From: an uncultured Alphaproteobacteria bacterium
GTDB lineage: Bacteria > Pseudomonadota > Alphaproteobacteria > CAAHEQ01 > UBA3637
Direction: 5' to 3'
Assembly: GCA_944392125.1 (NCBI GenBank)
Contig: CALXVP010000001.1
Span: 289,020-353,019 of the forward strand
DNA: 64,000 nt
Shown here: positions 20,563 through 58,405 of the stretch, one piece after another
Position numbering within the stretch: position 1 is the stretch's first letter
Layout of the letters: each line of letters starts with the position of its first letter
Program-made: the position numbers and the translations under genes
The notes under the pieces: generated by a model
What the model was told of the DNA's origin: nothing
Databases searched by the model: none
The model's input: the letters and a program-made list of their open reading frames with translations, nothing else

Positions 20563-20802
20563 CTAAAATACCACCTTTATCATACGTCTGCGAGAGGTTG
20601 TCGTTTTACCTTCGGCCGCCGCAATTTGAGATTTTAGACTTGAGATATAACTTTCCAAAGCCGCTCGTGAGGTTTGGTTGTAGGTCACCGAACCGAAATT
20701 GCCGACATTAACCGAGACTTCCTTGGCTCCGATGAGCAGTTTATGGTAGGCTTCTTCTGCCTCAGCCAATCGTGTTTTAAGTATTTCTTTATCTATAACC
20801 AT
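20563..20802 (-). CDS. Head-tail joining protein (gpW-like)
   Basis: About 79 aa, sits between the terminase remnant and the portal gene, as lambda W does. Confidence 0.5.
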   Translation of the reverse strand: MVIDKEILKTRLAEAEEAYHKLLIGAKEVSVNVGNFGSVTYNQTSRAALESYISSLKSQIAAAEGKTTTSRRRMIKVVF

Positions 20803-21256
20803 GGATTATCCACCTTTGTTGGTTGCATTTGAATAAATCGTTTTTTCTTTTGAACCGGAACAGCCGAGCTTTTAGCCGGAATAACGGCCTCTAACTCTTG
20901 CCATGCCTTTTCACTTAATCGGTCAAGACCATAAATTGCAGCTCCGGCACGAGCATAAACTCGGCAGTCCAAGGCTTCGTTTCGTCTTGCCGGGTTTTTT
21001 CCCATACGGGTTTCGGATAGCCGTTGCTGATTTTCACGACCTGTCGCATCCCGTCGTCATCGTAGCCGCCTTTGCCGGTTAAAAACCCGTAATCGGCCAT
21101 CGGGTTTTCACAAACCGCTTTATAAGCTTCTTCGTCTAAACGGATGGTTTCGGCGACCTTAACTTCGGTTGCTTCGTTGCCGTATCTTTTGGTTAACTCC
21201 ATGACTTCTTCTAAGTCACTTGGTTTTCGTACTAAGTAGGTTTTAACTGTTTTCAT
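20793..21256 (-). pseudogene. Terminase large subunit, C-terminal remnant with frameshift
   Basis: Two overlapping ORFs. The downstream one ends ...NPARRNEALDCRVYA, as in the lambda gpA C-terminus. The N-terminal roughly 500 aa are absent. Confidence 0.45.
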
Positions 21257-21335
21257 TTTAAGCTCCTTTTGTTCTTGTTTTTCAAGGCGTTCTCTGCCTT
21301 TCCTTACAATTACATTGTTGCTTGGAATTCGAAAT

Positions 21336-22553: not shown

Positions 22554-22933
22554 TTTTCCTTTCCTTTTAAATAAAACTCAATCTTTACAATGGCTTTATC
22601 ATACTTGAGCATTAACCTTGACCTGCAAAGGCCAAATTCTCGGCACAAAATTTTCCAAGGAATTCGGTTGGCTCGCTTCCAAACAAGGCGGCGTTCATCA
22701 ATTTCTAGAAGTGGTATCCATTCCAAAGTGACAGTCTCCCATAAACTTACCTGTGTCTGAGTTGGACGTGGCCGAACTAGTCGGCGGTCCATCAGAGCAA
22801 TTTCTTGCGGCGTGTATATAATCTCGGGCATCAAACACCGATATTTGGGAGAACGGACTGGCGGTAACAACCGGTCAACATAGGCGGCTGTTTCCAAGTT
22901 TGCTTTGATTTCTGCGATGGTTTTAGGTTTCAT
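22460..22933 (-). CDS. Hypothetical phage protein (possible wHTH)
   Basis: ORF only. Overlaps the methyltransferase start by about 94 nt. Confidence 0.3.
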   Translation of the reverse strand: MKPKTIAEIKANLETAAYVDRLLPPVRSPKYRCLMPEIIYTPQEIALMDRRLVRPRPTQTQVSLWETVTLEWIPLLEIDERRLVWKRANRIPWKILCREFGLCRSRLMLKYDKAIVKIEFYLKGKEKCRVQKMSGHFQKKSPKSWQALRSSALPTQS

Positions 22934-23600
22934 CCAGCACCACCTTTACTTTGCTAAGCACATCATGACAGATGTCCGTCATAGTCTCCATTTCCGAGTA
23001 TGCGAGACCGTTCTCCTTGCAAAACCATTTCCTAACGGCTTTACGCCAGTCAACGGCAATGTATTTCTTGCCGTTCATCCAACCACGTTCTTCGTTCCAC
23101 CGAACGAAGGCGACAGGGTCAATTGTATATCCACTTCGTTTGCAGTATTCAGCCACTTCTTCAATGCTCGGAGCCCCGACATATCCGGACTTATCCACAT
23201 TTTCAGCCCCTTTATTTTTATTATTTTTAATAAAAACATATCCGGACTCTTCATCTCCTTTATCCTTATCCTTCTCCTTATCAGGTTTTTCGTTGGCGGA
23301 ATTTGGCGGTGGTTCAGAAACCTTAAGGTTTTCCTTTTCACGTTTTGGCCGACCACCTTTAGAGCTGCCAGCCTTACGTTTTTCGCAGGTTCCAAAATAT
23401 TTGCGATTGTTTTCATCAATGCCTGCTTGCAAAAAATTAAAACGGTCTTGAACTTTTTCCGATAAATTTTTTGTGATTTTTCCGTACAGAGCGTATTCAC
23501 AAAGTGCCTTAATTAATGTCGCACATTCACAATTTGTAAAATTATACACAGATGCAAGGAACTCCGCCGGATAAAACACGAATGACGTTTTTCTATCCAT
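22923..23600 (-). CDS. Hypothetical phage protein with K/E-rich linker
   Basis: ORF with a conserved-looking N-terminal domain and a basic low-complexity centre. Confidence 0.45.
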   Translation of the reverse strand: MDRKTSFVFYPAEFLASVYNFTNCECATLIKALCEYALYGKITKNLSEKVQDRFNFLQAGIDENNRKYFGTCEKRKAGSSKGGRPKREKENLKVSEPPPNSANEKPDKEKDKDKGDEESGYVFIKNNKNKGAENVDKSGYVGAPSIEEVAEYCKRSGYTIDPVAFVRWNEERGWMNGKKYIAVDWRKAVRKWFCKENGLAYSEMETMTDICHDVLSKVKVVLDET

Positions 23601-42100: not shown

Positions 42101-45100
42101 GGGCGGGAGTGGCGCAACAACGAATAATACCTCCGTTGCCGATGCACAAGTTGATATGAACGGCAAGAGCAATGTAGCCGTCAATAATGTTGCCATCAAT
42201 GCAACCAATACGTTTGAAAAGAAAAACAGTGCAAATCAGGCCGAAGTGAATATCAATTCGGGCAGTGGCGGAATTGTGGATGCGGCAGCCGTTCAAAGCG
42301 AAACAACAACGAATCATTCGGCCAAAGTTGTGTTCGGCAAAGAGGCACAGTTCAATCAAAATACGGGTAAAAAATCATCCAGCATCAATGCAACGGCCGA
42401 TGAGGCGTCGGTTGATGGATTTACCGTGAACGCCGTCAATAATATCACGGCGGAAGATAAAGTCAGATTAGTGAGCGGCGGGGCCATACCGATTGCCAAA
42501 ATCATTACAAAAATCAAAGATAATGCCGATTCTTTGATTGAAATAAACGGCTCGATTTCTTCGGGACAAGATATTGTGATGAATGCCCATGATAACGTTA
42601 ACATCACAACCGACGGGGAAGCCAGCACTTACGGTCTGTCGGCCGTTGCCGGCGGGGAAGCGGAATCTTCATCCGTTGCGAACAATACCATTCGTTTGGC
42701 AGACGGAAGCAGTCTCTATTCGGATAAAAATGTTTATCTTTCCGCCGGACAGGTTAAGGAAGATCAATCCAACAAAACGACATTAAAATCGCTGACGCAA
42801 TTATGGAATAATTCTGCCGTTCCCATCTCGGATAATACGGCAAGGGCTCAACTCAATTTAACAAATTTAATTGATTTACAAAAGGGCTCTGTTTTAAAGA
42901 GCGGGCAAGATGCTTTTCTGACATCACAAACATCGCAGGAATATGAAATCGTCGGACAAGCAGATTCGCATAATCCGTATAACCAAGCCTTCGCAACAAA
43001 TGCAACGACCTACGATTCGGACGGACTGCATGAAAATTCCGCCATTGCGATTAACGGCAGTCTCTTTGCCGGCGTGAATAATGAGAAACATATCACGATT
43101 GATCAAGACGGCCATGTGCATGTTGTCGGGGCGAACGGCAAAGAAGAAGATGCTTCGCAATACTATACGGAAACGCAAAAAAGTTTATATACCGAAATGC
43201 AAACGCAAATGACCAACTTACAACAAATGTTGGCCGACTATGGAAATGATCCGGTATACAAAGCCTTTTACGAACAAGAAATCAATGCGCTGAAAGAGCA
43301 AATGAAAGCCATGGGCTTATTGGTTGAATATGTCGATAAAGGTGGAAACGAACAATTTTATATTCGCGAAGATATAACAACACCTTATATTCAAATTCAC
43401 GATTTGCAAGCCGGTGCGGGCGCCGTTGAATTGCTGACAGACAACGTAACGGGTTCCGGCAATATTGAAACAACGAGCGGTGCCGAAATCAGCATTACCA
43501 ATAACAGCAATCGCTTTTTGGAATTAAATGATTTAACCATCAACGAACGCGAAAGCGGTTTATTGCGCTATAATCATAAAACGGTGTCTCCAACCGCTGA
43601 AACGGATTCAAGTGGCTTTTATGATACATTTACCGGTCAAGTCAACCTGGCTTCCGGCGATACAACGGATCAATCCATCACGATTAAATCAACTTATGTT
43701 GAAAATACGGATACGGGTATTGCTCTATCGCCGAGTGTTGATATTTTAGGCAACGTTATCAATTATAACGGCAATATAGATATCACTGCTGCCGGCGCTA
43801 TTTATACCGACGGCGTTGTTCGCGGAAAGTCAATCAATATGACAACGGGTGGCGCCATTGTGCAAAAAGCGAACGATTTGGTTTATCATGTCGGCGGAGA
43901 TCCCTCGTCGGCATGGAACGACACAGCCTCTAAAAATGAAGCGGGTAGCAGTTCGGCAACACCCAACGTTTCGCAAGATTTAGCCAGCTATGATTCCGCT
44001 TTGATTGCGTCGGGCAATATCTATCTCAGCGGGCGTTACTTAAATTTGAACGGGTTGGTTCAAAGCGGAACGAGTGATTTTAAAATGAATCTGCAAGATG
44101 GTCATTTAAAATTAACATCGGCAGGAAAAACGCTCACGGTTGAGCAGGCAAAGGCCGACTATGCGTCAAAAGCGCAAACAAACGCAGATGCTTCACCGCT
44201 TTATGCGCTCGTTAAAGATGATAATAATAATGTAACGGCCTATTTCAACGTATTAACGAATCAAATTGAAATAGACGATGTGCGCATTCAGGGCGGTTAT
44301 ATTGAATTACACGGGCAAATTATGAATACGTCTGCTTCCACCGGTGAATTACGAGTTGCAGACGGCTACGGGCGGTTATCCGTCAACAATAAATCGGGAT
44401 ATGATATTGTGTTAAACAATGTCAATTTAAACGAAAAAATCATCGGAATGATTAAAATTACCGATACGGGCAAAAATAATGAAACAACCGTTTATCTGCG
44501 AGACGGTAATACAATCAGGCAAGATGTATTCGCAGCGGACGGCACGCAAAAAAGTAGCACAACCATTACGGCCGGCATTGATGAAAACGGTTATTCGTCA
44601 ACAACATACAATACGGCTTCGGGTCAGCGTTATCAATGGATGACGGGTATTGAAACCACCACCCAAAGAGAAACAACCTACAATACCAGCACGTTCTGGG
44701 ATATTGACTGGCTTTCGCCCGATGATGATGATATTATTGCTTTCAAAGAATGGAATTTAACGGATAGTCCTTTGCGCGAAGGCGAAAGCGTATTAACGGC
44801 GCAAAATAATCCGTATACTTATTCATTTTCAAAACAAACCGTGACGTTAAACGATTGGACGGAAGTCAATCGCAAACAGTGGACGGATACAAAGGGCTGG
44901 TGGATTTTCTCAACCCAAGAAAATTACACGAAGATTACGGAGCAAAAAGGCACAAAAACTTACTATACGCACTCTTTAAAAGCCGATAATCCGATTAAAG
45001 TTTCTTTCAGCGGTTTCCAAACAGGGCAAACAGACGTTCAAAGCAACGGCAACATTTATTTGCAAGGCGATATTCTCACCAAAAACGGTTCGGTTGTATT

Positions 45101-48100
45101 AAACAGCACGAACGGCAAAATCGATTCGCTTTCCAATGCAGCATCCGTGAATGCCGATACCATTCACCTCTCGGCGCAAACAGGCATCGGAGCAGAAGAA
45201 TCCCTCAATATTACCTTAACGGGTAACGGCTTATTAACTGCCGATAATACCGGAACGGGGGATATTTCCCTAAATGCACTCAGTGGGAACGTTCTGTTTG
45301 ATAACATTACGACGGCTGACGGGGATATTTCCGTTCACGCATTCGGGAATATCACGGGCGATACATCGCAATCCCTTATCAGCGGAAATCATTTAACCTT
45401 AACGGCAGAGAACGGCACGATTTCTACAAAAGACAATGGTGCGTTAAATATTCAAACCTCATCAACCGATGGCACACTCACGGCTTTTGCCGACGGCGAT
45501 ATTAAATTAACGCAAGCAAACGGCGATCTCGGTATTGTGCAAGTTGCTTCACGGCAAGGAAATGTGGAATTAACCGCTTTGCAAGGAGGCATTTATGATG
45601 CCAACGATGAATCGCAAGAAAACCAGCAAACAAAAGCCGAGTTGGAAAAACGTTGGGAAAATATGGGCTTAACGGGTTTAAGCGGTGAATTGTTGGATAA
45701 AGCAGTAGAAGCGTTTGAAAATCAAAAAACGGCAGAATATCAAGCCTATTGGGAGCAACGGAATCAAACGGGCAACACGCAATTTACTTATTCGGCTGAA
45801 GAAAAAGCCGTTTTAAGCGATAGTTTAATTCGCTCCGTAAAAACGGAAAAAGAAATTGCCAAGATGAGTAGCGATGAAATTCGCGCCATAACAGATCCGA
45901 TGATTACCGCATTAGAGGCGGAAATAACGGCTCGTTTTGAAGATACCGTTTATGATACTTCCTACCGTTACACGGCCACAAGCGAAGATAAGGCGCAACT
46001 GGCGCGCGGTGCCGGTTGGAATAAATCGCAACTGGAGTATAGTTTTGCGGTGGCGAAATTAGATACGCAAGTCGGCACGCAAACAACTGTGGAAGAGCCG
46101 AATCTCGTCGGGAAAAAGGTTGTGGTTAATGCCAATGGGTCTATCGGACGGGATAACGGGGAAATCACCTTATCGGTAGACGATATGGAAAATTGGTCCG
46201 AGCAAGAGAAGCTGATATTTACGGCGGCCGAAAGGGATAATGTCAGTCTATCGGAAGATGGCAAAGAAGTAACCGTATCATTACGTGAAGATTTAGATAT
46301 TCACGCCTCCGATTCCTTAACATTGCAGGCAAAAGACTATGTTTATCTCGGGGCAGAAGAGAATATCTACATTGATAAAATCATGGCCGGAGACGAAACC
46401 AATCGGCAAAATATCTCCATTGCGGGAGCCGGCAATATCTATCAAGTTTCCACGGATTCATCGCCGGCATTAACGGGGAACGACGTGGTATTAGAATCCG
46501 CAAACGGCAGTATCGGCACACAAGATATTCCCGTTTCCGTTGATTTAGTCGGCAAAATCAATGCCCGCGCTCAAAACGATATTTATCTGACGAGTGTAGA
46601 TAAAAACGGAGCGTTAAATGATTTGAATGTTGACTATTTATATGCAGCCAATCAAATCGGATTAACCGGCAAAAACATCTCGGATAGCCGAAATGATGAC
46701 CTTGTCAACATTCGGTCAAATAAAGTCATTTTAAATGCGTCGGAAGATATCGGATCAGCGGAAAATGCGGTAGACGTTGCATTAACAAACACCGATGATT
46801 CATCTGAACTCATCACCGTTTCCGGCAAAAACACACACATCCAAAATGCCGAATCCGGTCAGTTAACCATCACGGCCGAAAGCGGGGAAAATTTAACGGT
46901 TACGGCACCGAGCGGGAATATTTATGTTGCAAAGGCAACGGCAAAGGGGAATACCGACCTGACGGCGCAAGCGGGTGATATGGATATTGAAACAATTTCG
47001 GCAGATGGGAATATGCGACTATATGCCGATCAGTCACTCCGTATCAATCAGGCTCAAAGCAATGGAAATATGGATTTGCAAAGCGGTGATTTAACGGCCG
47101 AAAATATTTTAAGTGGCGATACATTGTCAATCCAAGCGCATACCAGCGATATTTTCATTAACACGGCCGAAAGCAATCACGATGCGACCATTATTGCAGA
47201 TGCAGGCAACATTACCATTCAAAACGGTTTACTCTCACGGCTCGGCAACGGTATTGTTAAGGCATTGAAAAAGGCATTAACGGCGCACCGCATTGAAACA
47301 GCTCAATCTTTAACGGTTGAAACCGGCAGTGATTTGCAAGCCGACACGCTGGTGAGTGGCACAAATGCCGACATTACCGTCGGCGGAAAAGGCGTGATTG
47401 ACTCCTTAATCAGTGGGGCGGATATAACCTTGACGGTGGAGAAAGATGCCGAAATTGAATCGCTTGACGCCACGGGTAATGCCACGATTTCCATCGGGAA
47501 GAATGCAGCCATTCAATCGGCACAGGCAGATAAAAATATCACGCTTACGGTTCAAAACGGAAGCACAACCGTAAACAAACTGTCAAGCGGGGAGAAAACA
47601 ACGCTTGTTGCAAACGGCGGAGATGTTTTACTGAACGAAGTTGTGTCGGGCGATGATATTGCAGGCGAAACGAATAACGGGAACGTTTTGATTAACAATA
47701 TGAAATCAAATAAAAATATTTCTTTTACCGCTCAAAACGGGGATTTGGATATTGGGTTAATTGAAGCGATGAACGGCTCGGCAACGCTGTCGGCAGAGCA
47801 AGGCAACATCATGGGAATAACCGACGATACCTCTGTTCGCGCGCAAACGGTTACATTAGGACTTGCAGGTCAAAATATCGGCTCAGAGAATCGTCCGATG
47901 AAAATTGAAGCGAATTTAGCCAACGCCTCGGCCAAAGAGAATATTTATGTATCCCTGCGTTCGCCGGATGAAACGGCTACCGATACCCATTTCGGCACAT
48001 TTACCTCCGAAAGCGGGAATATCACATTAACTGCCGAAAATGAAAATGCCGTTTTAAATGGCGAAGTATCGGCTCGGAACGGGCATATTTCACTCTTTGC

Positions 48101-48872
48101 CAATCAATCCATTCAGGATAAGGCACAAAGCGAAAACGGCACATTACAAGCCAACACACTTACGCTCATGGCTCAAAACGGTAAAATCGGCGATGAATCC
48201 GCCTATATTCAAGTTGATTCATCTACTTTGCAAGACGGTTGGATTGATGCTCAGGCTTCCAACGGAATTTTCATCAATGAAACCAAAGGGCCCATGTATG
48301 TGCGTCAACTGGCGGTAGAAGACGGGGATTTAAAAATGCACGTTAATTCAAGCATTTTAGGCGCCAAGAATACCGATAAAGAACCACATATTATTGCCGA
48401 GAGCATTGAACTGCATTCAAATGAAGGCAGTATCGGTTCATCGGATAACGGGTTAGTTATGCAAATTAACGATACCCGACCGGGACGCATCAATTTGCAA
48501 GCGGCAACGGGCATTCACTTTGAAAAGACAACTTCCGATTTATGGTCTGACTATATGGTCATTACGGATAGCGGAAAAATACAGGCATACTTCCCGAGCG
48601 GACATGTGCGTGTTCAATACCTGCAAGCACCGAACGGGGCCGATTTCTTGTTTACGGATCGCGGGCAACGCTCTAACCTCTGGCTGGCAACAAAGGATAT
48701 TGAAAGCGTTTTGCTTGATTCAAAAGCCATGCAAAATCCGTTAAAACAAAATCAACCGCAAGATCAAACACCTTTTGAATGGTCATACGAATTGCAATTC
48801 AAAAATCATGCCGGCCAAATTATGGAAAAAGAAGATTGGAAAGATTATTTTATTGAAGCAAGTTTGAAATAA
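33192..48872 (+). CDS. Giant TpsA exoprotein (filamentous-hemagglutinin-like, ~5.2k aa)
   Basis: Signal peptide, then a TPS domain (NAFNSF...LLLNPNGIMVGANG) and long beta-helical repeats. RBS aagggg upstream. The start codon overlaps the tpsB stop. Confidence 0.85.
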   Translation: MKNGQHTHSMNIHTNHVSEKTNRVHQSQTQGKEKTASKIAKPQIDWIKTYKFLLNTMIFICPSIATAQMIRPDGMTATNVNVNGNIYNVTTGTVSGNNAFNSFHTFDVYKGTTVNLILPNQTQNLINLIHDKATNIDGILNSYQNGQIGGNVLLLNPNGIMVGANGVVNVGSITMATPDAAFLKTLVSNGKINQTAVNAVLDGDMPISPSGTVSVKGKIKAQKKVAVRAQHVKNEGEIRVKPNLSDLVNTGNAQIEHQDISIKDGAIIINAEQDFTNAGTIAVEGKNNKKTNGINIQAGNDIVLEKNAVISADGKGVNSSGGDIILKAKNDAVLKEGSKLSAKGGASGDGGFIELSADNRVDLAGGQFDTSAQDGETGVAYIDPDTVEISQDQTSSSNIVIEGRVVSVKDNVKLTAKNADITITAKNGAKDGNDYTSGTLTNGKAVAGITIGKNAQLDADNINLSALNVIETGWGSSGEPSLSGFLGVSLLDAETYIRLSQGASLSADNDISLNLESIAKAKATVGTMVVSASYAELNHTAEISVTDAIMNAGGNISLKSALLSSVDLDAYTVASKDSNVATGFAGSFAYGQMFSDNTISVSGGSVTAGKNINVEATTDKNMTVKAATVGLISSVGALDVAIAESEVNNKALINSAVSGKDVNVVSDIHSITSTNASGNAGLGNLGSKFVGAVENKVQALTPDAILNLITSTGAGKKITDAADNHQQGQTQGQKATIKIAGAISYVDHQNTAEAVIGAQGDVQAQNDINVQSKVYDVATNAAEASASGGSSDDNQAKNAVAAAVTIADFQNTSRAYISGNAQVDAVHRLNVQSDVIMPPKYTAEGSTYFNLSSLKKGESEGFWNDFVDSSETLWGTIFEHANTNLGILDEFYNSWAKSSANLDNPDDSDQQFAGNGSVNLTDYWNNSVAFIGEGAKINQRNTAQAGNRVVDVNAGTDVTGVNLGGMVGLPSSTETGQGVGVGASFMMTRYNNTTGAFIGNNAKVDAEGLNVSAELENQNISTTVAFGKSENLGINGMMNFLKTENNTIAQVSGGAQVSVNGGIDKNAYKDATGKNYTERDGTIKSYDAVHIRTYEDSLFVNATGDMAKKDGGSTVVAAVTVSQVNRLAHAVLGDIRTDLMSTTALSNWQKALQSGDTLLYDLTRTGASDGYFSTPSALNVTADADGLNVSVAIAASKTKSDAGNVPGVDVSDPDDVEDGVELEDFDEEEVEAPADITSEDQKQKGKFGMGISASFSWNQFANDVAAYLKNARYNGRDTRNANDINLTAGDKTESYAVTGGVSLELAKNKGTNVAVGASASYNTIQDNVRAVIDNSSVSNVKDVTADAQNNTKMMALAIGAAAGMAENGVTLNGSATVNDIANTTEASILNSTITGRNIRLTAKDKSWLLQTGLGLSVSNNAGGGAVAGWNNVSNTVKALAQNNQITAGDLTLNASNEMDIRSISTGGAASAKGAVALTGAYNNISNTTEASVTGSQTDDEAQKIKVDSASLTATDDSDILAISTGAGIGKKLGANIVVGVNRIGNTTRAGFETVDVAGTAQKSPVFKATAVNKGVIRSFANSVGVGEYGGLGNVGTYNSIYNTTETFSRNALLSGTSLSFSSQDRSYILAETAGAGISSGIGLGLAVSINRIGNTLRAVAENSKLNMTGDVSLTAQSYPSDTAPTDDLPQEAGDISALDDVDKRSITTITVGAGVGNYGAGLAGTYADVQNTIESAIKGGTVQAQNIQLSAIDQANILNIGVAAGGGKTAGIAGLSTTNIIKNQVKATIGYDKDEKNTATDITTDENIRLTAAENSTINAITAAAAGGGSAGVAGNIAYNEISNSIQTGINQAGVSVDGSIDLTALAQDNANFYYGTVAGGAGVGVGGVIGLNFLNNKASANIDSSDLIVNGTTAIDNRYGLITNATVSDDVAIYGGSAGGAGNIGISGSVGFAQVNNEAETKLTESSVTTDSPSANNSGADMNATNETAVQIYAGAVGGAGSTGIGGAVTTAVIRNNTIARAEKSYLDLPGDISLDASDTTHFNGAVVAGGGAGGTGIGASVNVALIENTVDSALDSSIAKAGKNLSVEATGVTGIGKSGVPAEENDDFKNNAFVIGGAGVGGTLGLGISMNVAQVQNTVSAKIKNSHAQATENLSVSADDTTHITDYIIAAGMGGMAGVAGSLGVHYVDSSVTAGIESDQETISVGNINEITQAAGKNISVTADNNMNHQTVMTVVGAGGTGVGASVNVSTLRGSTDAHIQGAMDIIADEDISVDALTTRGTDIKVITGGGGGMAGVAGAISVSTLGHGDNNSSAYTSGTQDGEKQGTDDTVAQYLAENEKALNSAQSQKLFMTKDAEDTGIKKSDSLSVQINSSEGNGSLSGKESSSNTNNQQSNLSAENASERFKGTRAFIDLGNKALTAGQDIQVSAKDTVNSQTLNGGVGVGGFAAVGASVAVANIDTNTQAFIQNATVVASGDVSVESGLDETADALTFAAAGAQSYALSGAISVVNSHNINDSFLGNNAVISKAKNLSVRTNGDATLSAETIGASVSMTAGVGASVTEINKSGESNAWIDSNASVGQEVYYAKEDTDYTNPLTRAEMEEIIGRPISDSDFTSGEMGADGKTTVYYLKGDTAKKRPFTATEKEAYISLYNADLPTEDDFVHFAKGEQVETLLVNAIDTVNLTAETTAAAGGVVSGAGTSSGATISDKQKAVINSGADIAVLKSADIKTNASAKANATTLGVAVGGAAVSTSLSRAEINLDNTAEVQDNVTLSAENATVEAYQSKADAFTDSLAAAGALLAGNGADSNSTVSGRVSADIGAGAEITAKDTLSVTAKAMQNANAVASAYRGGLLAAGAALADSRTNVDTRTRFENGVIIEADSLNLNAVNDITLYGETVSGSGSLIGGAAAISTTANDSSAQVQLGTSETNPESESLYNLNSLSVTAENKIKQNAFSDSINASLLGGSGATTNNTSVADAQVDMNGKSNVAVNNVAINATNTFEKKNSANQAEVNINSGSGGIVDAAAVQSETTTNHSAKVVFGKEAQFNQNTGKKSSSINATADEASVDGFTVNAVNNITAEDKVRLVSGGAIPIAKIITKIKDNADSLIEINGSISSGQDIVMNAHDNVNITTDGEASTYGLSAVAGGEAESSSVANNTIRLADGSSLYSDKNVYLSAGQVKEDQSNKTTLKSLTQLWNNSAVPISDNTARAQLNLTNLIDLQKGSVLKSGQDAFLTSQTSQEYEIVGQADSHNPYNQAFATNATTYDSDGLHENSAIAINGSLFAGVNNEKHITIDQDGHVHVVGANGKEEDASQYYTETQKSLYTEMQTQMTNLQQMLADYGNDPVYKAFYEQEINALKEQMKAMGLLVEYVDKGGNEQFYIREDITTPYIQIHDLQAGAGAVELLTDNVTGSGNIETTSGAEISITNNSNRFLELNDLTINERESGLLRYNHKTVSPTAETDSSGFYDTFTGQVNLASGDTTDQSITIKSTYVENTDTGIALSPSVDILGNVINYNGNIDITAAGAIYTDGVVRGKSINMTTGGAIVQKANDLVYHVGGDPSSAWNDTASKNEAGSSSATPNVSQDLASYDSALIASGNIYLSGRYLNLNGLVQSGTSDFKMNLQDGHLKLTSAGKTLTVEQAKADYASKAQTNADASPLYALVKDDNNNVTAYFNVLTNQIEIDDVRIQGGYIELHGQIMNTSASTGELRVADGYGRLSVNNKSGYDIVLNNVNLNEKIIGMIKITDTGKNNETTVYLRDGNTIRQDVFAADGTQKSSTTITAGIDENGYSSTTYNTASGQRYQWMTGIETTTQRETTYNTSTFWDIDWLSPDDDDIIAFKEWNLTDSPLREGESVLTAQNNPYTYSFSKQTVTLNDWTEVNRKQWTDTKGWWIFSTQENYTKITEQKGTKTYYTHSLKADNPIKVSFSGFQTGQTDVQSNGNIYLQGDILTKNGSVVLNSTNGKIDSLSNAASVNADTIHLSAQTGIGAEESLNITLTGNGLLTADNTGTGDISLNALSGNVLFDNITTADGDISVHAFGNITGDTSQSLISGNHLTLTAENGTISTKDNGALNIQTSSTDGTLTAFADGDIKLTQANGDLGIVQVASRQGNVELTALQGGIYDANDESQENQQTKAELEKRWENMGLTGLSGELLDKAVEAFENQKTAEYQAYWEQRNQTGNTQFTYSAEEKAVLSDSLIRSVKTEKEIAKMSSDEIRAITDPMITALEAEITARFEDTVYDTSYRYTATSEDKAQLARGAGWNKSQLEYSFAVAKLDTQVGTQTTVEEPNLVGKKVVVNANGSIGRDNGEITLSVDDMENWSEQEKLIFTAAERDNVSLSEDGKEVTVSLREDLDIHASDSLTLQAKDYVYLGAEENIYIDKIMAGDETNRQNISIAGAGNIYQVSTDSSPALTGNDVVLESANGSIGTQDIPVSVDLVGKINARAQNDIYLTSVDKNGALNDLNVDYLYAANQIGLTGKNISDSRNDDLVNIRSNKVILNASEDIGSAENAVDVALTNTDDSSELITVSGKNTHIQNAESGQLTITAESGENLTVTAPSGNIYVAKATAKGNTDLTAQAGDMDIETISADGNMRLYADQSLRINQAQSNGNMDLQSGDLTAENILSGDTLSIQAHTSDIFINTAESNHDATIIADAGNITIQNGLLSRLGNGIVKALKKALTAHRIETAQSLTVETGSDLQADTLVSGTNADITVGGKGVIDSLISGADITLTVEKDAEIESLDATGNATISIGKNAAIQSAQADKNITLTVQNGSTTVNKLSSGEKTTLVANGGDVLLNEVVSGDDIAGETNNGNVLINNMKSNKNISFTAQNGDLDIGLIEAMNGSATLSAEQGNIMGITDDTSVRAQTVTLGLAGQNIGSENRPMKIEANLANASAKENIYVSLRSPDETATDTHFGTFTSESGNITLTAENENAVLNGEVSARNGHISLFANQSIQDKAQSENGTLQANTLTLMAQNGKIGDESAYIQVDSSTLQDGWIDAQASNGIFINETKGPMYVRQLAVEDGDLKMHVNSSILGAKNTDKEPHIIAESIELHSNEGSIGSSDNGLVMQINDTRPGRINLQAATGIHFEKTTSDLWSDYMVITDSGKIQAYFPSGHVRVQYLQAPNGADFLFTDRGQRSNLWLATKDIESVLLDSKAMQNPLKQNQPQDQTPFEWSYELQFKNHAGQIMEKEDWKDYFIEASLK

Positions 48873-51962: not shown

Positions 51963-53687
51963 ATGCACTTAATAGATTTGTTTAATGAACTGGGGCTTAA
52001 AACATATTCTCACAGGGCGGAAGATGCCAACTATCTGCGCTTTTGGAAAAAATTGCATAGACAGATGGGTGAGGAGAACGAAAAATCGGCCTATGGCTCG
52101 TATATCGTGCAAATCCTTACGAAGCATATTTCGCAACAGGCGAAATCCGAGAAAACAAATTCCGCACCGATTGAAATGAAGTTTCAGCCAAAGAGTGTTT
52201 TTTCGTTGACAAATGCCGACGAGTTTCCGCCTCTTCCGCTAACGAATGCCGTGTTGATACATTTAAGTGATTCTTACTATCAATTCTTAAGACATGCTCA
52301 TTTTTCCACCCTTCCCAGTATTGCACAAGAAGATTCATTCTATCATAAGATGTTAACGAACACGGGGAAAGTGGAGGCCTCAACCGGTGACGATGATAAC
52401 CCTTGGCTATGGAGAACATCGGAATCTTATCAGCAAAACAGAATGAGCAAATTAGCAACCTCTTTTCGGATAACGGCAAATGTTAATTGCACGCCTGAAT
52501 GGGTAGACGCGATGGATGCGTTTGCCGAAAAATACGGGGCGAAATATAAATCTCCGGTAGATTGCCATACAACAAATCGCATAGATACGTTGAATGTGTA
52601 TTTTGCAACACCTGAGAAGAAACCGACGCCTGAAATGATCAATGATTTTGTTCGGATAATGAATCCCTACATTCGCAAAGAAAATAATGAACGGCTCATC
52701 GGCGGAAAAATTGCGGAAGGGATACACTGGTCACCCGAACATATTTCAACTGCCGAAAAAAAGCGGTTTGATGCGGAAGTAAATAAACAATTTATTCCTC
52801 TGGACACATCAACCGGATTTCCAAGAGCGCGCGAATCAAGTAGGTTGCATTTTTTTGGTAAATGTACGGATCCTCAACGCAGTGCCGCGCAAATTGAGGT
52901 GATGTATCAAATCAAGGAGTTGTTGGAAGGCGTGGTGTTAGAGCAACCGATAAGCCCCCGCGGAAAAGAAATGGTTGCACCGCCTATTCCGGCCGTGCGT
53001 GGCTTAACATTGCCCAAAACACCGAAACCTGCGGGACTGGCGGGCATAGGGGTAAAAGCCGGCGGAAAAACACCTGTTATGTCGCCGAAAACGGCCTATC
53101 AAGCAATGATGGACGCTCTTTACACACCGAATAAAACACCTGCGGAATTGGAACGTATGAGCAGTTGGCTGAACTTCGGCAGTGAAATTAACACACAAGG
53201 CTTTAAAACCAAAACAGCGCGTAGTACAGGAGAAACGGGAGCGCGATTACTTGAAGCCGCCGTTGAACACGGGCACGTGGGCGTTGTTGCCAATTTGATG
53301 AAACAAGGGGCGAACCCCACACTATTGACGGGAAGTTTCGGCAATACTCAGGCAGGGGAAACTATTTTTCATCTGGTGGCAGACAATATATACGATTCAG
53401 CCGTGATGAATCAAATGGTAAAGCAATTACTCACGTATTCCGATAAAAAAGCCGTTCAAGCTTTGCTCAATCGGCCCAATGCAAGCGGGATTACACCTGT
53501 CACGTATGCCATTTTGTTTAATCCGCGGAATGCCGAGGTGTTTATGCGGTATGGCGGAAAATATCAAAGTAATGCCGAATTATCGGCCTATTTCAAGAAA
53601 TTTCCCGAACAGAAAAAACAATACGATTCCTATATGAGAAAACATTGCATTGCTTCATCATTCAAGTCCACAAAATCATACGCATGA
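51963..53687 (+). CDS. Hypothetical protein with C-terminal ankyrin-like repeats
   Basis: Ankyrin-like repeats LLEAAVEHGHVGVVANLMKQGANP and TPVTYAILFNPRNAEVFMRYGG. Confidence 0.4.
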   Translation: MHLIDLFNELGLKTYSHRAEDANYLRFWKKLHRQMGEENEKSAYGSYIVQILTKHISQQAKSEKTNSAPIEMKFQPKSVFSLTNADEFPPLPLTNAVLIHLSDSYYQFLRHAHFSTLPSIAQEDSFYHKMLTNTGKVEASTGDDDNPWLWRTSESYQQNRMSKLATSFRITANVNCTPEWVDAMDAFAEKYGAKYKSPVDCHTTNRIDTLNVYFATPEKKPTPEMINDFVRIMNPYIRKENNERLIGGKIAEGIHWSPEHISTAEKKRFDAEVNKQFIPLDTSTGFPRARESSRLHFFGKCTDPQRSAAQIEVMYQIKELLEGVVLEQPISPRGKEMVAPPIPAVRGLTLPKTPKPAGLAGIGVKAGGKTPVMSPKTAYQAMMDALYTPNKTPAELERMSSWLNFGSEINTQGFKTKTARSTGETGARLLEAAVEHGHVGVVANLMKQGANPTLLTGSFGNTQAGETIFHLVADNIYDSAVMNQMVKQLLTYSDKKAVQALLNRPNASGITPVTYAILFNPRNAEVFMRYGGKYQSNAELSAYFKKFPEQKKQYDSYMRKHCIASSFKSTKSYA

Positions 53688-53992
53688 GGGAATAGCTTTT
53701 GCTCCCTTTGAGTAAATAAAACAAATCGTTTCGGGCAACCTGAAAATGCGTAAGCCATATTGTGCAGAAAATAAACAATGCGCAACATACAAGGTGCAAA
53801 CGATTAAACGATGCGCAAACCTTATTCTGCGGAGAAATAAACAGCACGCCAACTAAAAAATGTTGCTTGAAAATGAGCCAATGTAAGCAAAAGCGTATCT
53901 CTATCCGAGGTGGGGTTTGATTGAGGTTTGCTCGGGGCTTTCTCGGGCTTGTTTGAGACTGGTTTGTGGGATTTTAGCTTGCAGAAAAAACG

Positions 53993-54457
53993 CTAACTTT
54001 GCGGGAAAAAGCGGGCCAAATCGGGGCATGTATTATCCACACTTAACATAACCGTAATTGTTTTGCATATTTCCAACTGCTCTTGCGGGAACGACATTAG
54101 GATACTTACCCCATTTTCACAAATACCGCCAACACACTCTTTTCCGCCAGTATATGCCGTATTTAAGGCAATCCCGACGCCGTTAATTGAATCCATATTC
54201 GCAATACTTACGCCGGAATTTGCCAACGTTGCGGGGGTAAACCCGATAACCGAGCCACCGTGTTTGGCTTTATAGGATTGAAATTGCATATAAACGGTTG
54301 AAGCATATTTTGAGGCGGTATCTAAAACCAAATCGGCCCGATAGCGACGCATGGCCAGCATATAGCCCAGCGTTCCGCCGATGGATAAAACAGCAATAAT
54401 CGCCAGCACGGCTAGCATTTCCACCATTGAGCGACCCGATTCGTTCGTTTTTTGCAT
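53993..54457 (-). CDS. Type IV pilin-like protein (paralog 1)
   Basis: Prepilin leader MQKTNESG|RSMVEML with Glu at +5, a hydrophobic helix, and C-terminal Cys residues. Confidence 0.65.
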   Translation of the reverse strand: MQKTNESGRSMVEMLAVLAIIAVLSIGGTLGYMLAMRRYRADLVLDTASKYASTVYMQFQSYKAKHGGSVIGFTPATLANSGVSIANMDSINGVGIALNTAYTGGKECVGGICENGVSILMSFPQEQLEICKTITVMLSVDNTCPDLARFFPQS

Positions 54458-54715
54458 TTTGATTCCTTTTATCTAACCCCGACCCACACCCGAATCAGCC
54501 TATTAAAGGCTGGCGATTCAAACTGATGATATCGGTAATAATTCATTATACCGTTTTCAAATTAAAAGTTCAAGTTTTTTCATATCGTATTGATAACTTT
54601 TTTAATTTATCCAAAAATCACGCGCTAAAAAGAAGAGATGAATCATCATAGCGGGAGGAATAAGGGAGACGTAGATGTAAGGGTGAGCAAAAAGAGAAAA
54701 TAAGAGGCATAAAAA

Positions 54716-54752
54716 AGTGAGGCGTTCAAAGCGAACGCCCCGTTGTTCAGAA
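54716..54752 (-). terminator. Rho-independent terminator downstream of pilin paralog 2
   Basis: GGCGTTC-aaagc-GAACGCC stem followed by a T-run on the minus strand. Confidence 0.55.
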
Positions 54753-54784
54753 TGTTTAAAAACGAAATTCTTGTGTTTCGCTGA

Positions 54785-55306
54785 TTAGCTGTTGCGTGAA
54801 CAGAATGTGACTTGACTACTTGAACAAGTTGAACCCAGTGTTGAAGCTGCTGCTTTGCACACAGCATCATCATCAAAATCCAACGTTAAATTTACACCCA
54901 CTGCAGTCGTGCTATTATCAGCTGCGTCTGATCCTAGCTTATTGGCAGCGCTACAAACAGTATCATCATAGTAACCTTCCAGTGTAATCTCTGTTCCATT
55001 GACTTTACACGAGGTTGTTTGGGTGCCGCCTGATCCTGTTGTTGTAGTTGTAGCAACTAAGCCCGTATCACAAAAACCTGGTGCTGTAAAAGAAGTTACC
55101 ACACCATTATGCATAGCTCTATTCGTTTCACGCGCTGAGAAAGCAATAACAGCGTATTTATTTGCCATATCAATTACTTCATTGGCACGATAGCGGTTCA
55201 TTGCCATTGTGTAACCGGCAATACCACCGACCGATAAAACACCGATAATAGCTAAAACGCCAAGCATTTCAACCATTGAACGGCCTGATTCATTTGTTCT
55301 TTTCAT
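54785..55306 (-). CDS. Type IV pilin-like protein (paralog 2)
   Basis: Leader MKRTNESG|RSMVEMLGVLAIIGVL. Strong RBS aaggagag. C-terminal Cys pair. Confidence 0.7.
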   Translation of the reverse strand: MKRTNESGRSMVEMLGVLAIIGVLSVGGIAGYTMAMNRYRANEVIDMANKYAVIAFSARETNRAMHNGVVTSFTAPGFCDTGLVATTTTTGSGGTQTTSCKVNGTEITLEGYYDDTVCSAANKLGSDAADNSTTAVGVNLTLDFDDDAVCKAAASTLGSTCSSSQVTFCSRNS

Positions 55307-55765
55307 GTTTCTCTCCTTTTCTTTTTCGTTTCCCGAAAGTCCCGTCTTCCCATTCCCCGAATGAGTCAACTCCCGTTTTGATGTTTATTTTGCATCGTTA
55401 TTCTTTCGGATGAAGTGCCTCTTTCATCACCTCATACTTATTATTTTATTAAATTATTTTTAAGTTTTCAACTATTTTTTTATAAAAAATATAATTTTTA
55501 TTTAAATTTTTGGGAAATGGTAGATTTTTTGGGCATTTATGTTTTTTTTGCAGAAGCATGAAGCCATCATCAGCCATTCGGTTGACCCATTCAAAAGTAA
55601 GCGTATCTTATACCGCCTTTTCAGCCAAATCAAGTTTAAATACGTTGCGCACTTTGCTTGGCGCAAAGACCGCGCTTGCTTTTTACTCCCACTTTTCTCG
55701 GGAGAGAGCAGTTATCGTTTGTTTTTTTAGCGTAAAAATATCGCGTGCTTTGCGCTTTTTATATC

Positions 55766-55940
55766 CTGCGCGAATGGGGCGAAATTGCAATGGCTTTTTT
55801 ATATTCGTGCGAACAGGGCGAAAATGCGACGGCTTTTAGCGTTCCAATCGAACAGCGTTAAAATGCCCCGTTATTCGCTGTTCTTCCCGTCAACGGCGCG
55901 AAATATACCCGTTTATTCGCTATTTTCCAAACGAACGGCA
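55766..55940. repeat. Array of ~40-bp degenerate direct repeats (about 5 units)
   Basis: Recurrent cgaa..gggcgaaa.tgc.a.ggctttt and c.aac.gcg..aaat...ccc.tt.attcgct units. Confidence 0.55.
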
Positions 55941-55941
55941 A

Positions 55942-56050
55942 ACATCTCTCAGGAGGGGGGCAAGGCTCCCCTCAGGCGAGTGGCGCAAAAACATCTCTCA
56001 GTCGGGGGCAAGGCTCCCCTCAGGTGAGTGGCACAAAGACATCTCTCGGA
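55942..56050. repeat. Tandem ~48-bp direct repeat (2.2 copies)
   Basis: Unit ACATCTCTCAG(G/T)(A/C)GGGGGCAAGGCTCCCCTCAGG(C/T)GAGTGGC(G/A)CAAA(A/G). The unit contains a GAGGGG/CCCCTC hairpin. Confidence 0.8.
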
Positions 56051-56083
56051 TTGAGCAAAGGCATCTCCGCCCCACATCATACA

Positions 56084-56118
56084 AAAAGAGGCGCTCGAAA
56101 TGAACGCCCCTCTCAGAA
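56084..56118 (-). terminator. Rho-independent terminator downstream of pilin paralog 3
   Basis: GC-rich hairpin (GAGGGGCG...CGCCTCT) followed by a T-run on the minus strand. Confidence 0.45.
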
Positions 56119-56150
56119 TTTTCAAAAACGAAATTCTTATGTTCAGCAAA

Positions 56151-56621
56151 TCAGCTACTGCGTGAACAGAAGTTAACAGTAGAACAAGTCCCTGACACAG
56201 ATTGACCCAATGTTGAAGCTGCAGCTTTGCAAACATTTTCATTTGAGAATGTAATAGGAATTTTAACGCTCAATGCAGACTGATTGTCAGTAGCTTGGGT
56301 TGCTCCACACGTTGTATCCGTGTGATACGTAAGGGCACCAAAAGTTGCACCATTGATTGTGCTACTTGTGAACAAACCTGACGTTGTCAACGTCGGCGCT
56401 TGATAACCTGTTGTGCTACCATTGTGCATTGCCATATATGTTTCACGTGCCGAGAAAGCAACAACGGCCAATTTGTTTGCCATATCAATAATTTCGTTTG
56501 AACGATAACGGTTCATTGCCATTGTGTAACCGGCAATACCACCGACCGACAAAACACCGATAATAGCCAAAACGCCGAGCATTTCAACCATTGAACGGCC
56601 TGATTCATTTGTTCTTTTCAT
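56151..56621 (-). CDS. Type IV pilin-like protein (paralog 3)
   Basis: First 40 aa identical to paralog 2, with a variable C-terminus and Cys pair. RBS aaggagag. Confidence 0.7.
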   Translation of the reverse strand: MKRTNESGRSMVEMLGVLAIIGVLSVGGIAGYTMAMNRYRSNEIIDMANKLAVVAFSARETYMAMHNGSTTGYQAPTLTTSGLFTSSTINGATFGALTYHTDTTCGATQATDNQSALSVKIPITFSNENVCKAAASTLGQSVSGTCSTVNFCSRSS

Positions 56622-57059
56622 GTTTCTCTCCTTTTGTTTTATATTTACCGAAAGCCCCGTCTTCCCATTCCCCGAATGAGTTAACTCACGTTTTGATACT
56701 TATCTCGTATCGTTAATCTCTCGGATGAAGCGCTTATTCCATCACCTCATACTTTTCATTTTATCCGAGGTTCCCATTCTTTGCAATCTTTTTTTCCAAA
56801 AAAACCGCATTTTTTTGCTTTTTTTTGCGAAAATTAATTTTAAAACTATTTGATTTTAAATTATAATTTAATTTTGTCTTTTTTTGTTTAATTTATTTTT
56901 AAATTCTCAAATCACATTTAAAAAAACTATCAAAACGATTCTTTCTTTTTTCGCCGTCGGCTATCTTAAACAACACTCGTCAGGCTCAAAAAAATACCGA
57001 AAGCCAATCATCGATTCGTCGGCTTTCGGTATTTTACTGTTGCGTTTATTACTTAAATG

Positions 57060-57260
57060 CTATTTTTGCTCTTTTTCCAATTCTTCAATTTCTTGCTTAA
57101 TAGCTAATTTTTGCTTTTTATACTCCTGTATCTTTAACGAATCCGGCATCGGACGCGCATTTTCTTCATCAATTTTAACATCCAATTCTGCATGTTTGGC
57201 TTTTAATGAGGCTAAGTGTTTTTCAATTTTTTCCATGTCTTTCTCCTTATGTTGACTCAT
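57060..57260 (-). CDS. DUF465 (YdcH-like) small protein
   Basis: 66 aa coiled-coil protein. Pattern LKxKHAELDxKIDEE. Confidence 0.5.
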   Translation of the reverse strand: MSQHKEKDMEKIEKHLASLKAKHAELDVKIDEENARPMPDSLKIQEYKKQKLAIKQEIEELEKEQK

Positions 57261-57313
57261 TTAATATAATCGTATTATTTTTAAATTGCAAGGTCTCTTT
57301 TATTTTCTTTTCC

Positions 57314-58405
57314 TTATTCGCCCACATAAATGCCCAGTTGGCGCGCCGTATACACCAATTTCCCTTTCGGATCAACCGGCGTATTCGCAATTTTTAAAAT
57401 CGTATTCAAGGCTTCATCTTTCACTTCGCCGTCTTTATGAATCACCACGCGATTCGTTTCGCCTTTCTCAATTAAATCAACCGCTCGCACCGCAAATTCA
57501 GAGGCTAAAATCCGATCATCCGATACCGGATTGCCTGCCCGTTGCACGTGGCCCAATACCGTGGCGCGCACGTTGTAGCCGTCTTTTTGCAACTTCTCGG
57601 CAAAAATAGCCGATACACCGCCGAATGTTTTGCCGTTTGTGGCAAAATGGTGTTTACCCTCGGGCGATTTAATTCCTTCCGAAATCACAATCAAGCCGTA
57701 TTTCTTTCCTTGCGCTTTTATCTCTTGCAGTTTCTTGACAACCCCCTCATACGTGTAATCAATCTCGGGGATTAAAATCACATCCGCATATCCCGCAATA
57801 CCTGCCGATAATGCCAAATGCCCCGCGCCTCTGCCCATGACTTCCGCAATCATTACCCGATTGTGCGACGTGGCGGTTGTGGTTAATTTATCCAGCGAAT
57901 CCATCACAACATTAACCGCCGTTTCAAATCCGATGGCAATATCCGTGCCCGGTGCATCGTTATCAATCGTTTTCGGAATACCAATCATGGAAATGCCTGC
58001 CCGCTTGCAGAATTTGCTGATGATTGCCATTGAGCCATCTCCGCCCACAACAACCAATGCACTGATTCCCAATTCCTTAATGCCGGATTGAAAACGCTCA
58101 TCCAATTCTTCATCCGTTAAATTTTCCGTTGTGCCGTCGGCCTTTTCTTGAATATGCGGATTGCCGGAATTATTCGTGCCGAGCATTGTGCCTCCCAGTG
58201 ACGCATACGGATAATCAAATTCCGAAATCGTGAGCTTTTTGTATTTCATCGGACGCGAAAATAATCCGTCTGTTGAATTATAAATGCCGATCACTTCCCA
58301 GCCTTTTGCAATCGCCGCAAACACAACTCCGCGAATCGCCGCGTTTAAGCCCGAGCAATCTCCGCCACTCGTTAAAATACCGATTTTTTTTGTTTCTGTT
58401 GTCAT
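57314..58405 (-). CDS. pfkA: ATP-dependent 6-phosphofructokinase
   Basis: Motifs GILTSGGDCSGLNAAIR, GGDGS and LGHVQRAG. RBS ggagag precedes the ATG at 58405. Confidence 0.85.
   Translation of the reverse strand: MTTETKKIGILTSGGDCSGLNAAIRGVVFAAIAKGWEVIGIYNSTDGLFSRPMKYKKLTISEFDYPYASLGGTMLGTNNSGNPHIQEKADGTTENLTDEELDERFQSGIKELGISALVVVGGDGSMAIISKFCKRAGISMIGIPKTIDNDAPGTDIAIGFETAVNVVMDSLDKLTTTATSHNRVMIAEVMGRGAGHLALSAGIAGYADVILIPEIDYTYEGVVKKLQEIKAQGKKYGLIVISEGIKSPEGKHHFATNGKTFGGVSAIFAEKLQKDGYNVRATVLGHVQRAGNPVSDDRILASEFAVRAVDLIEKGETNRVVIHKDGEVKDEALNTILKIANTPVDPKGKLVYTARQLGIYVGE

Follow-up and report, generated by a model that had tools for sequence, protein, structure and literature searches.

Three type-IV-pilin-like genes, two of them hypervariable between strains, in an uncultured alphaproteobacterium

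The stretch of DNA analyzed here, referred to as the window, comprises 64,000 nucleotides (nt) of contig CALXVP010000001.1 (positions 289,020 to 353,019) from an uncultured gut alphaproteobacterium. Between positions 53,993 and 56,621 it carries a tandem array of three minus-strand genes whose products resemble type IV pilins in their N-terminal motif and in their predicted fold. Two of the genes, paralogs 2 and 3, are hypervariable between strains, and the third, paralog 1, is conserved. A six-frame scan of the window found three copies of the N-terminal motif, those of the trio alone. The genes and the codons of their leader peptides are:

53993-54457, minus strand: paralog 1, a prepilin-like gene of 154 amino acids (aa), the conserved member of the trio, recognized as an open reading frame (ORF) with the motif
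54785-55306, minus strand: paralog 2, a prepilin-like gene of 173 aa counted from MKRTNESG, with six cysteines; hypervariable, 'type B' allele
56151-56621, minus strand: paralog 3, a prepilin-like gene of 156 aa with four cysteines; hypervariable, 'type A' allele
54434-54457, minus strand: leader-peptide codons of paralog 1
55283-55306, minus strand: leader-peptide codons of paralog 2
56598-56621, minus strand: codons of the predicted class III leader peptide of paralog 3 (8 residues, MKRTNESG), as read from the sequence, with predicted cleavage between Gly8 and Arg9

The N-terminus of paralog 1 is MQKTNESG/RSMVEML and that of paralogs 2 and 3 is MKRTNESG/RSMVEML, where the slash marks the Gly-Arg bond at which the leader would be cleaved. 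For paralog 2 the ORF list also offers an alternative upstream TTG start at 55369. All three proteins have Gly at position -1, Arg at +1 and Glu at +5, and the motif RSMVE(+5)MLGVLAIIGVLSVGGIAGY leads from Glu+5 into a hydrophobic stretch of about 20 residues. An earlier, sequence-only reading of this DNA had described three minus-strand pilin-like genes with Glu+5, and the ORFs, the motif and the fold agree with it. The leader that it gave as (K/Q)TNESG is correct in its motif, but TNESG is preceded by K or R instead of K or Q. The N-termini that it called identical are so in paralogs 2 and 3, which share their first 40 residues and differ in 4 of the first 120 nt, but not in paralog 1, which differs from the other two in 36 of these 120 nt and is about 40% identical to them overall. 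Where it ascribed a C-terminal cysteine loop to each protein, a cysteine pair conserved in the family is present at the sequence level (C131 and C146 of paralog 3). The cysteines of the paralogs are at different positions: 105, 131, 146 and 152 in paralog 3, 79, 100, 118, 150, 161 and 169 in paralog 2, and 108, 113, 131 and 144 in paralog 1. Finally, it had remarked on the Arg at +1, and rightly so. The usual residue at this position is a hydrophobic Phe, Met, Leu or Val, and to our knowledge Arg+1 differs from every characterized prepilin substrate. In the family to which the trio belongs, all 249 representatives counted have Gly-1, Arg+1, Ser+2 and Glu+5; this count was anchored on the hydrophobic stretch alone, the residues being counted afterwards.

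The standard pilin models recognize this N-terminus at the right position but below their thresholds. Scores are 15.1-17.4 bits with Pfam N_methyl (cut-off 21.2) and 11.5-15.6 bits with TIGR02532 (cut-off 16.3). The poor fit of the Arg+1 motif to these models explains why relatives of the trio are named 'hypothetical protein' in public records. An AlphaFold2 model of paralog 3, calculated from 79 family sequences, has a predicted local distance difference test score of 93 and a predicted template modeling score of 0.80. In the model a long helix (residues 7-65) leads into a small sheet and a short helix (residues 128-138), an arrangement that is the alpha/beta fold of pilins. The best structural matches of the model are CofA and TcpA, and this is one likeness of the trio to the type IVb systems (bundlin BfpA of enteropathogenic Escherichia coli with BfpD/E/F, R64/Salmonella PilS with PilN-R, TcpA of Vibrio cholerae and CofA of enterotoxigenic E. 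coli). A profile search of the sequences in the PDB returned only the N-terminus of Geobacter PilA, a weak match (E = 0.34). The mature proteins of the window would have about 146-165 aa with a globular head and have Met at +6. These features rule out Flp/Tad pilins, whose mature peptides have 50-80 aa and a G|xxxxEY motif. Together, motif and modeled fold support the description of the trio proteins as type-IV-pilin-like.

Paralogs 2 and 3 are built alike. They share a 5' block of 300 nt with 88% identity, which comprises about 137 nt upstream of the ATG and the N-terminal coding region, and a 3' block of about 150 nt, which comprises the last 90 or so coding nucleotides and the terminator. 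Their divergence is confined to the middle of the gene, and the variable 3' ends proposed in the sequence-only reading are therefore incorrect. The blocks and the cores that they enclose are:

56418-56717, minus strand: conserved 5' block of paralog 3, a direct repeat of 55103-55402
55103-55402, minus strand: conserved 5' block of paralog 2, the partner of 56418-56717
56241-56435, minus strand: hypervariable core of paralog 3, residues 63-127, covering the alpha-beta loop and the beta-sheet
54866-55120, minus strand: hypervariable core of paralog 2
56083-56242, minus strand: conserved 3' block of paralog 3, encoding NVCKAAASTLG...FCSRSS and the terminator; repeated at 54714-54870
54714-54870, minus strand: conserved 3' block of paralog 2, with its intrinsic terminator at 54719-54741

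The expression signals and the RNA leaders of the array, with the repeats in one of its spacers, are:

56758-56786, minus strand: predicted sigma-70-like promoter of paralog 3 (TTGCAA, 17-nt spacer, TAAAAT; consensus match)
55443-55471, minus strand: predicted sigma-70-like promoter of paralog 2 (TTGAAA, 17-nt spacer, TAAAAT; consensus match)
54545-54573, minus strand: predicted sigma-70-like promoter of paralog 1 (TTGAAC, 17-nt spacer, TATAAT; consensus match)
56622-56757, minus strand: conserved 5' leader of paralog 3, about 135 nt, predicted to be structured
55307-55442, minus strand: conserved 5' leader of paralog 2, the counterpart of the paralog 3 leader
56078-56114, minus strand: intrinsic terminator of paralog 3, a 13-bp stem with a U-run (-23.6 kcal/mol over 76 nt, z = -3.3)
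55756-56062, no strand assigned: tandem repeats in the spacer between paralogs 3 and 2 (48 bp in 2.5 copies; 39-42 bp in 2-2.4 copies)

A ribosome-binding site of the AAGGAG type precedes each of the three genes, and the promoter-like site of paralog 3 occupies the same position in two of the loci from other metagenomes used for comparison (L001 and L002; all such loci are designated by L and a number). Strong hairpin-plus-U terminators end paralogs 2 and 3. Paralog 1 lacks a convincing same-strand terminator, the T-run of a nearby hairpin being on the opposite strand, so the terminator that the sequence-only reading assigned to each gene is confirmed for only two of them. The arrangement of these signals suggests that each pilin gene is a separate, monocistronic transcription unit. 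The same three-hairpin fold is predicted for the leaders of paralogs 2 and 3 (z = -2.8 and -3.1). It includes one compensatory pair change (GAUAC/GUAUC versus GAUG/CAUC) and leaves the ribosome-binding site free of pairing, and the leader is kept in L001-L005. An Rfam search of positions 53000-58000 gave only a sub-threshold match to AgvB (22.8 bits against a gathering score of 56), and the conserved leader is thus not a known RNA family. The paralog 2 and 3 leaders may have a stabilizing or regulatory function. The 21-nt core of the spacer repeats was not found in 92 other loci that were compared, and the whole repeat spacer is unchanged in other assemblies of the window's haplotype.

In syntenic loci of other metagenomes there are always three pilin genes between DUF465/PFK and a gene for a 574-aa protein. 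The flanking proteins are 87-100% identical between strains, and LptB, PFK and DUF465 are 99.6-100% identical. Paralog 1 belongs with these conserved proteins. Its identity between strains is 95-99% and it forms a single cluster of 17 members at 90% identity, the next relative being 47% identical. The other two paralogs are far from invariant, with 55-84% identity between strains, which answers the strain comparison proposed in the sequence-only reading. Paralog 3 is 75-84% identical between strains (76-84% for the window allele against its slot orthologs) and its relatives fill more than a dozen 90% clusters. Paralog 2 is 55-72% identical (55-62% for the window allele against the same slot in L001 and L002). 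L001 and L002 themselves have flanks that are 92.7-100% identical, or 97.5-100% if the 574-aa neighbor is left out, compared with 72% for paralog 2 and 75% for paralog 3. The second slot of the window holds a six-cysteine type B allele, whereas L001 and L002 carry type A in both slots; further type B alleles (P0014-P0018) are found on other contigs. The mean column entropy of 15 type A alleles varies along the protein as follows:

Residues 1-62: 0.06 bits
Residues 63-127: 0.8-1.2 bits
Residues 128-138: 0.3 bits
Residues 139-148: 1.4 bits

The variable regions are therefore the alpha-beta loop, the sheet and the cysteine-bounded C-terminal loop. These are the surface-exposed regions of known pilins. 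The divergence of paralogs 2 and 3 between strains is what would be expected of exposed surface proteins under selection.

The rates of substitution, estimated by the Nei-Gojobori method, give an indication of the age of the alleles. In codons 1-62 the nonsynonymous rate (dN) is 0 between slot orthologs and 0.04 between paralogs 2 and 3 of the window, with a synonymous rate (dS) of 0-0.35. In the variable core dS is saturated at 0.8-2.7 and dN is 0.19-0.74. The background dS in PFK, LptB and the 574-aa gene of the same strains is 0.05-0.2. The core dS lies so far above this background that the core alleles must be much older than the strains that carry them. A known comparison is with the strain-level pilin allele groups of Pseudomonas aeruginosa PilA and the FimA serogroups of Dichelobacter nodosus. 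The trio differs from these in having two tandem variable slots and a conserved third paralog, in being unlinked to pilB, pilC and pilD, and in its N-terminal motif.

Exchange between the slots was analyzed by a sliding-window comparison of six transcription units. The outermost flanks of the units are slot-specific. The paralog 2 leader of L002 changes from the paralog 2 type to the paralog 3 type about 110 nt upstream of the ATG, and this gene-conversion boundary falls within the conserved 5' block, which is a substrate for homologous exchange. At the other end of the gene, paralog 3 of the window has a C-terminal loop block that resembles the corresponding block of L002 paralog 2 (91% identity) more closely than that of the ortholog from its own slot (65%); dS for the exchanged block is 0.28 versus 2.66 in the adjoining core. 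Blocks are also mixed among the alleles of other contigs, for example P0003. These tracts are direct evidence, in the sequences themselves, of recombination between paralog slots and between strains.

Conserved flanks around a variable core, together with demonstrable exchange between the two slots, might suggest a programmed antigenic-variation locus, such as Neisseria pilE/pilS or a Moraxella-type inversion system, in which cassettes are donated at high frequency within a clone. The array shares with pilE/pilS the presence of paralogous pilins with conserved and variable segments and of conversion tracts between the copies. However, it lacks silent promoterless cassettes. The three genes are complete and in the same orientation, each has its start codon, leader peptide, ribosome-binding site and promoter-like site, and paralogs 2 and 3 both have the identical full N-terminus and their own expression signals. 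No 5'-truncated silent cassette is present, and neither relevant inverted repeats nor nearby recombinase genes were found at the array. At least ten metagenome assemblies, which come from two studies, contain exactly the haplotype of the window. Where assembled, the array is 100% identical in seven of the ten and 99.0-99.9% identical in one or two segments of the other three. PFK, DUF465, paralogs 1 and 2 and three of the four spacers are exact matches, and paralog 3 (99.0-100%), the spacer between paralogs 2 and 1 (99.7-100%) and the 574-aa gene (99.9-100%) are near-exact. Within-clone variation is thus absent from the ten samples at the level of consensus assemblies, which would hide minority variants. 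Furthermore, the saturated core dS points to old alleles and not to rapid turnover. A programmed switching locus is for these reasons very improbable. The complete, promoter-bearing genes and the 99-100% identity of the array indicate strain-level allelic diversification with occasional recombination instead of pilE/pilS switching. Of the recombination-based antigenic variation suggested in the sequence-only reading, the recombination between slots and strains is upheld; a silent-cassette system is not supported. In one assembly (L183:3251-3673) paralog 2 was called as a protein of 140 aa, with 481 of 522 nt aligning to the window, which could reflect an assembly break or a real truncation within this repeat-flanked gene.

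The trio belongs to a large family. A full HMMER scan of 1.84 billion representatives of clusters formed at 50% identity gave 5,750 clusters at E <= 1e-3, a number taken as a lower bound, and 4,280 at E <= 1e-10. A word-indexed homolog search was saturated, with at least 7,892 clusters at 90% identity among the 8,000 candidates scored, and the motif occurs in more than 598 places in species-representative genomes. Nearly all carriers are metagenome-assembled genomes (MAGs) of Alphaproteobacteria from the gut of rabbits, ruminants and humans, together with 'Acetobacter sp. CAG:977'; the few other taxon labels look like binning errors. A MAG has several to many copies in the sampled loci, at least nine within 43-50 kb sampled. 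A full-text search of the accessible literature found no paper mentioning the motif. The 249 representatives show almost no variation in their first 24 mature residues, and most of their leaders have 7-9 aa. Total length ranges from about 120 to 654 aa, the same N-terminal module being fused to heads of 110 to 620 aa, and some members exceed the Pfam thresholds for PilS and Bundlin.

The longest members (595-654 aa with 36-58 cysteines; L079:2926-4851, L006:323-2287, L019:495-2336 and L054:9935-11722) carry cysteine-rich repeats on the pilin N-terminus. The L079 protein is above the gathering thresholds for EGF_Teneurin, EGF_2, DUF5885 and laminin EGF (epidermal growth factor); its match to EGF_TEN is longer, over threshold and seemingly truncated. 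By sequence, the EGF head is a eukaryote-like module on a bacterial pilin. In this respect the long members resemble the modular type IV pilins PilB/PilC of Streptococcus sanguinis and CofB of enterotoxigenic Escherichia coli, as a pilin module is fused to cysteine-rich or teneurin-type EGF repeats, but the genes of the trio are short and consist of a single module. Clustering of the neighbors of the pilin genes gave no recurrent partner, and the largest cluster was an ABC ATPase artifact. Ankyrin-repeat proteins adjoin family pilin genes in about eight loci, at distances of about 65-530 bp in L007, L010, L011, L018, L026 and L079.

A type IVb assembly machine was found in relatives. Queries with E. 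coli HofB, HofC, GspC-O and PpdD (tblastn and phmmer; 1.2 Mb, within 10 kb of 86 pilin loci) detected one ATPase, in L086. This is a PilT-like T2SSE ATPase (L086:16443-18326, also in L089-L092) that stands alone beside rimP-nusA-infB. It is 65-89% identical across many MAGs, often has a long repetitive proline-rich N-terminal extension and scores far below every curated ATPase model. A search for homologs of paralog 1 led to the PilS/Bundlin-passing, or type IVb, members of the family. In L093 the gene order is secretin, PilO, a 581-aa protein, a 606-aa T2SSE ATPase, the T2SSF platform protein, a 190-aa weakly bundlin-like protein, the unrelated genes for RuvC, YebC and a DEAD-box helicase, and last the pilin. 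Beyond the pilin is a T2SSE ATPase of 317 aa that is 56% identical to the rimP-nusA-infB-linked PilT-like ATPase. When metagenome contigs were scanned with the 606-aa ATPase, 80 loci with 68-94% identity were obtained; all 80 have the platform protein, 61 the secretin and 64 PilO. Of these loci, 28 exceed 15 kb, and 22 of the 28 have a PilS/bundlin-type pilin with the GRSMVEML motif immediately downstream on the same strand, sometimes in two or three tandem copies. L160 has in addition a TcpQ-domain protein upstream of the secretin. The region L160:2823-15740, similar to L112, L125, L146 and L176, appears as a type IVb cluster conserved on the chromosome of gut Alphaproteobacteria. It has two ATPases, TcpQ, secretin and PilO, a second bundlin-like protein without the cleavage motif, and no recognizable prepilin peptidase gene.

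The first 24 mature residues, GRSMVEMLGVLAIIGVLSVGGIAGY, are the same in paralogs 2 and 3 and in the machine-linked pilins, and paralog 1 differs from them at a few positions. Assignment of the trio proteins to the type IVb machine is inferred from this sequence: because the N-terminal assembly module is shared, the proteins of the window would be polymerized by a machine of the type IVb kind. The likeness to type IVb systems extends to the relatives with the same N-terminus, which pass the PilS and Bundlin models and are found in clusters with TcpQ, secretin, PilO, T2SSE, T2SSF and a PilT/BfpF-like ATPase. There are also differences. Type IVb pilins have leaders of 13-30 aa and Met, Leu, Val or Trp at +1; here the leaders are 7-9 aa (8 in the trio) and +1 is Arg. 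The mature trio proteins have 146-165 aa compared with about 180-200 aa, and none of the type IVb Pfam domains matches their heads. The clusters in relatives lack a prepilin peptidase gene, and the family genes are dispersed, monocistronic and present in many copies.

The interpretation that we favor, by a little over an even chance, is that the trio encodes subunits of a type IV, type IVb-like, filament, two of them hypervariable and probably exposed and one conserved. Each gene would be transcribed from its own promoter-like site. A prepilin peptidase would remove the 8-residue basic, Gly-ended leader before Arg+1, and a machine of the type IVb kind would polymerize the mature proteins into a surface fiber. 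Paralogs 2 and 3 would most likely be abundant, exposed pilins, either alternative or co-major. The diversity of their heads would be kept by frequency-dependent selection from phage or host immunity, and new head combinations would arise by homologous recombination through the 5' and 3' blocks, between slots and between strains. Paralog 1, with its distinct conserved head, would serve some constrained role.

Several results weigh against this interpretation. The pilin heads of the window match no Pfam pilin domain, PilS (PF08805) and Bundlin (PF05307) included, and in hhalign comparisons of the window pilins with the bundlin-like members residues 1-70 alone align. Pfam scans of essentially all large ORFs found no pilus-assembly genes in the window, and the roughly 6.6 kb past its left edge contain no machine genes, just a type III restriction-modification system. 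The sequence-only reading had proposed locating pilB, pilC and pilD elsewhere in the genome. An ATPase, a platform protein and a secretin are indeed found beside pilins with the same N-terminus in relatives, but neither a Peptidase_A24 homolog nor a polytopic GxGDxK protein was found in about 2.5 Mb near the pilin loci and machine clusters, which were searched with E. coli GspO (tblastn and phmmer) and with the GxGDxK motif combined with a transmembrane filter. No MAG with both a small-head pilin and a type IVb cluster is seen among the sampled loci, and the link between trio and machine consequently rests on the identical N-terminal module. Lastly, dN/dS in the core is below 1 and positive selection is not directly seen; long-maintained alleles that are moved by recombination fit this value better than recent bursts of substitution.

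The trio might instead encode minor, low-abundance pilins that prime or cap a fiber consisting mainly of a bundlin-like major pilin with its gene elsewhere, and that use their variable heads as tip adhesins. The machine-linked pilins of relatives do belong to a different, PilS/bundlin-like subfamily of 175-208 aa, many of the long family members have adhesin-like cysteine-rich or teneurin-EGF heads, and there are many dispersed copies per MAG, the nine or more mentioned above among them. Known minor pilins, however, are usually co-transcribed, either among themselves or with the machine genes, and have an N-terminus unlike that of the major pilin, whereas the genes of the trio appear monocistronic and have strong ribosome-binding sites, terminators and stabilizing-looking leaders. 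Their heads are small and like those of major pilins, and no bundlin-like gene is known from the genome of the window. We consider a minor-pilin role unlikely, though worth keeping in mind. The minor-pilin set of the sequence-only reading, in the sense of an operon of type II secretion system pseudopilins or minor pilins (GspG-K, PilVWX/FimU), was rejected: the genes are monocistronic, of similar size and with a shared N-terminus, none of them is GspH-K- or PilVWX-like, and there are no Gsp or Pil genes nearby.

A further alternative is that no fiber is formed and that the N-terminus is a membrane anchor or export tag that displays the heads on the cell surface or in the periplasm, as in a pseudopilus or bindosome, perhaps after processing by a non-canonical protease. 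This would accommodate the failure to find an A24 peptidase in the DNA examined, an Arg+1 that is atypical yet invariant, and the use of one N-terminal module for heads of such different size, EGF repeats included. However, 33 near-invariant N-terminal residues across thousands of proteins are better suited to helix packing in a filament core, pilins with the same module are located within complete, secretin-bearing type IVb clusters, and the fold is that of a standard pilin. Such a display system is, in our estimate, distinctly improbable.

Filament subunits remain the preferred interpretation, and a bolder version of it may be stated, which we regard as speculative and rather unlikely. GRSM(V/I)EML would mark a lineage-specific filament system of gut Alphaproteobacteria, in which Arg+1 replaces the N-methylated hydrophobic residue (perhaps pairing with Glu+5 in the fiber core), a peptidase not recognizable as an A24 enzyme processes the leader, and one machine serves dozens of dispersed subunit genes in each genome, from those for small hypervariable pilins to those for subunits with eukaryote-like EGF repeats. 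If this were true, GRSM(V/I)EML filaments would be a general, diversifiable surface display for interaction with host or protists. The uncultured Alphaproteobacteria of gut and rumen are widespread and their surface biology is undescribed. Recognition of the family and its machine annotates thousands of proteins, and the trio family points to a likely main surface antigen or phage receptor of these bacteria. The invariant Arg+1 and the peptidase that was not found raise the question of how tolerant prepilin peptidases and filament cores are. Hypervariability at the strain level is, in addition, a ready marker for tracking strains in metagenomes.

The rest of the window contains several other features. 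The 574-aa neighbor (51963-53687, convergent with the array) and its two upstream genes have no Pfam or NCBIfam match. Ankyrin repeats were suspected in this protein from its sequence and were rejected, as Pfam gave no support at E <= 0.001. A transporter of the ShlB/FhaC type with a POTRA domain (31108-33180) and a 5,232-aa ORF (33174-48872) form a putative two-partner secretion pair. At the same position in L001 and L002 a low-molecular-weight phosphatase gene adjoins HU and GreA directly, and the pair thus looks strain-specific at this position. A prophage remnant occupies about 14600-23600 on the minus strand and includes a lambda-type portal, an S49 protease, DUF1833, NlpC/P60, a GpJ-like tip protein, a ParB-methylase, DUF6362 and DUF6291. 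Its G+C content is 0.42-0.45 compared with 0.30-0.36 on the left flank. An alanine dehydrogenase/PNT gene at 12446-13322 is divided between two overlapping ORFs, suggestive of a frameshift or a pseudogene; the same division is called in L187.

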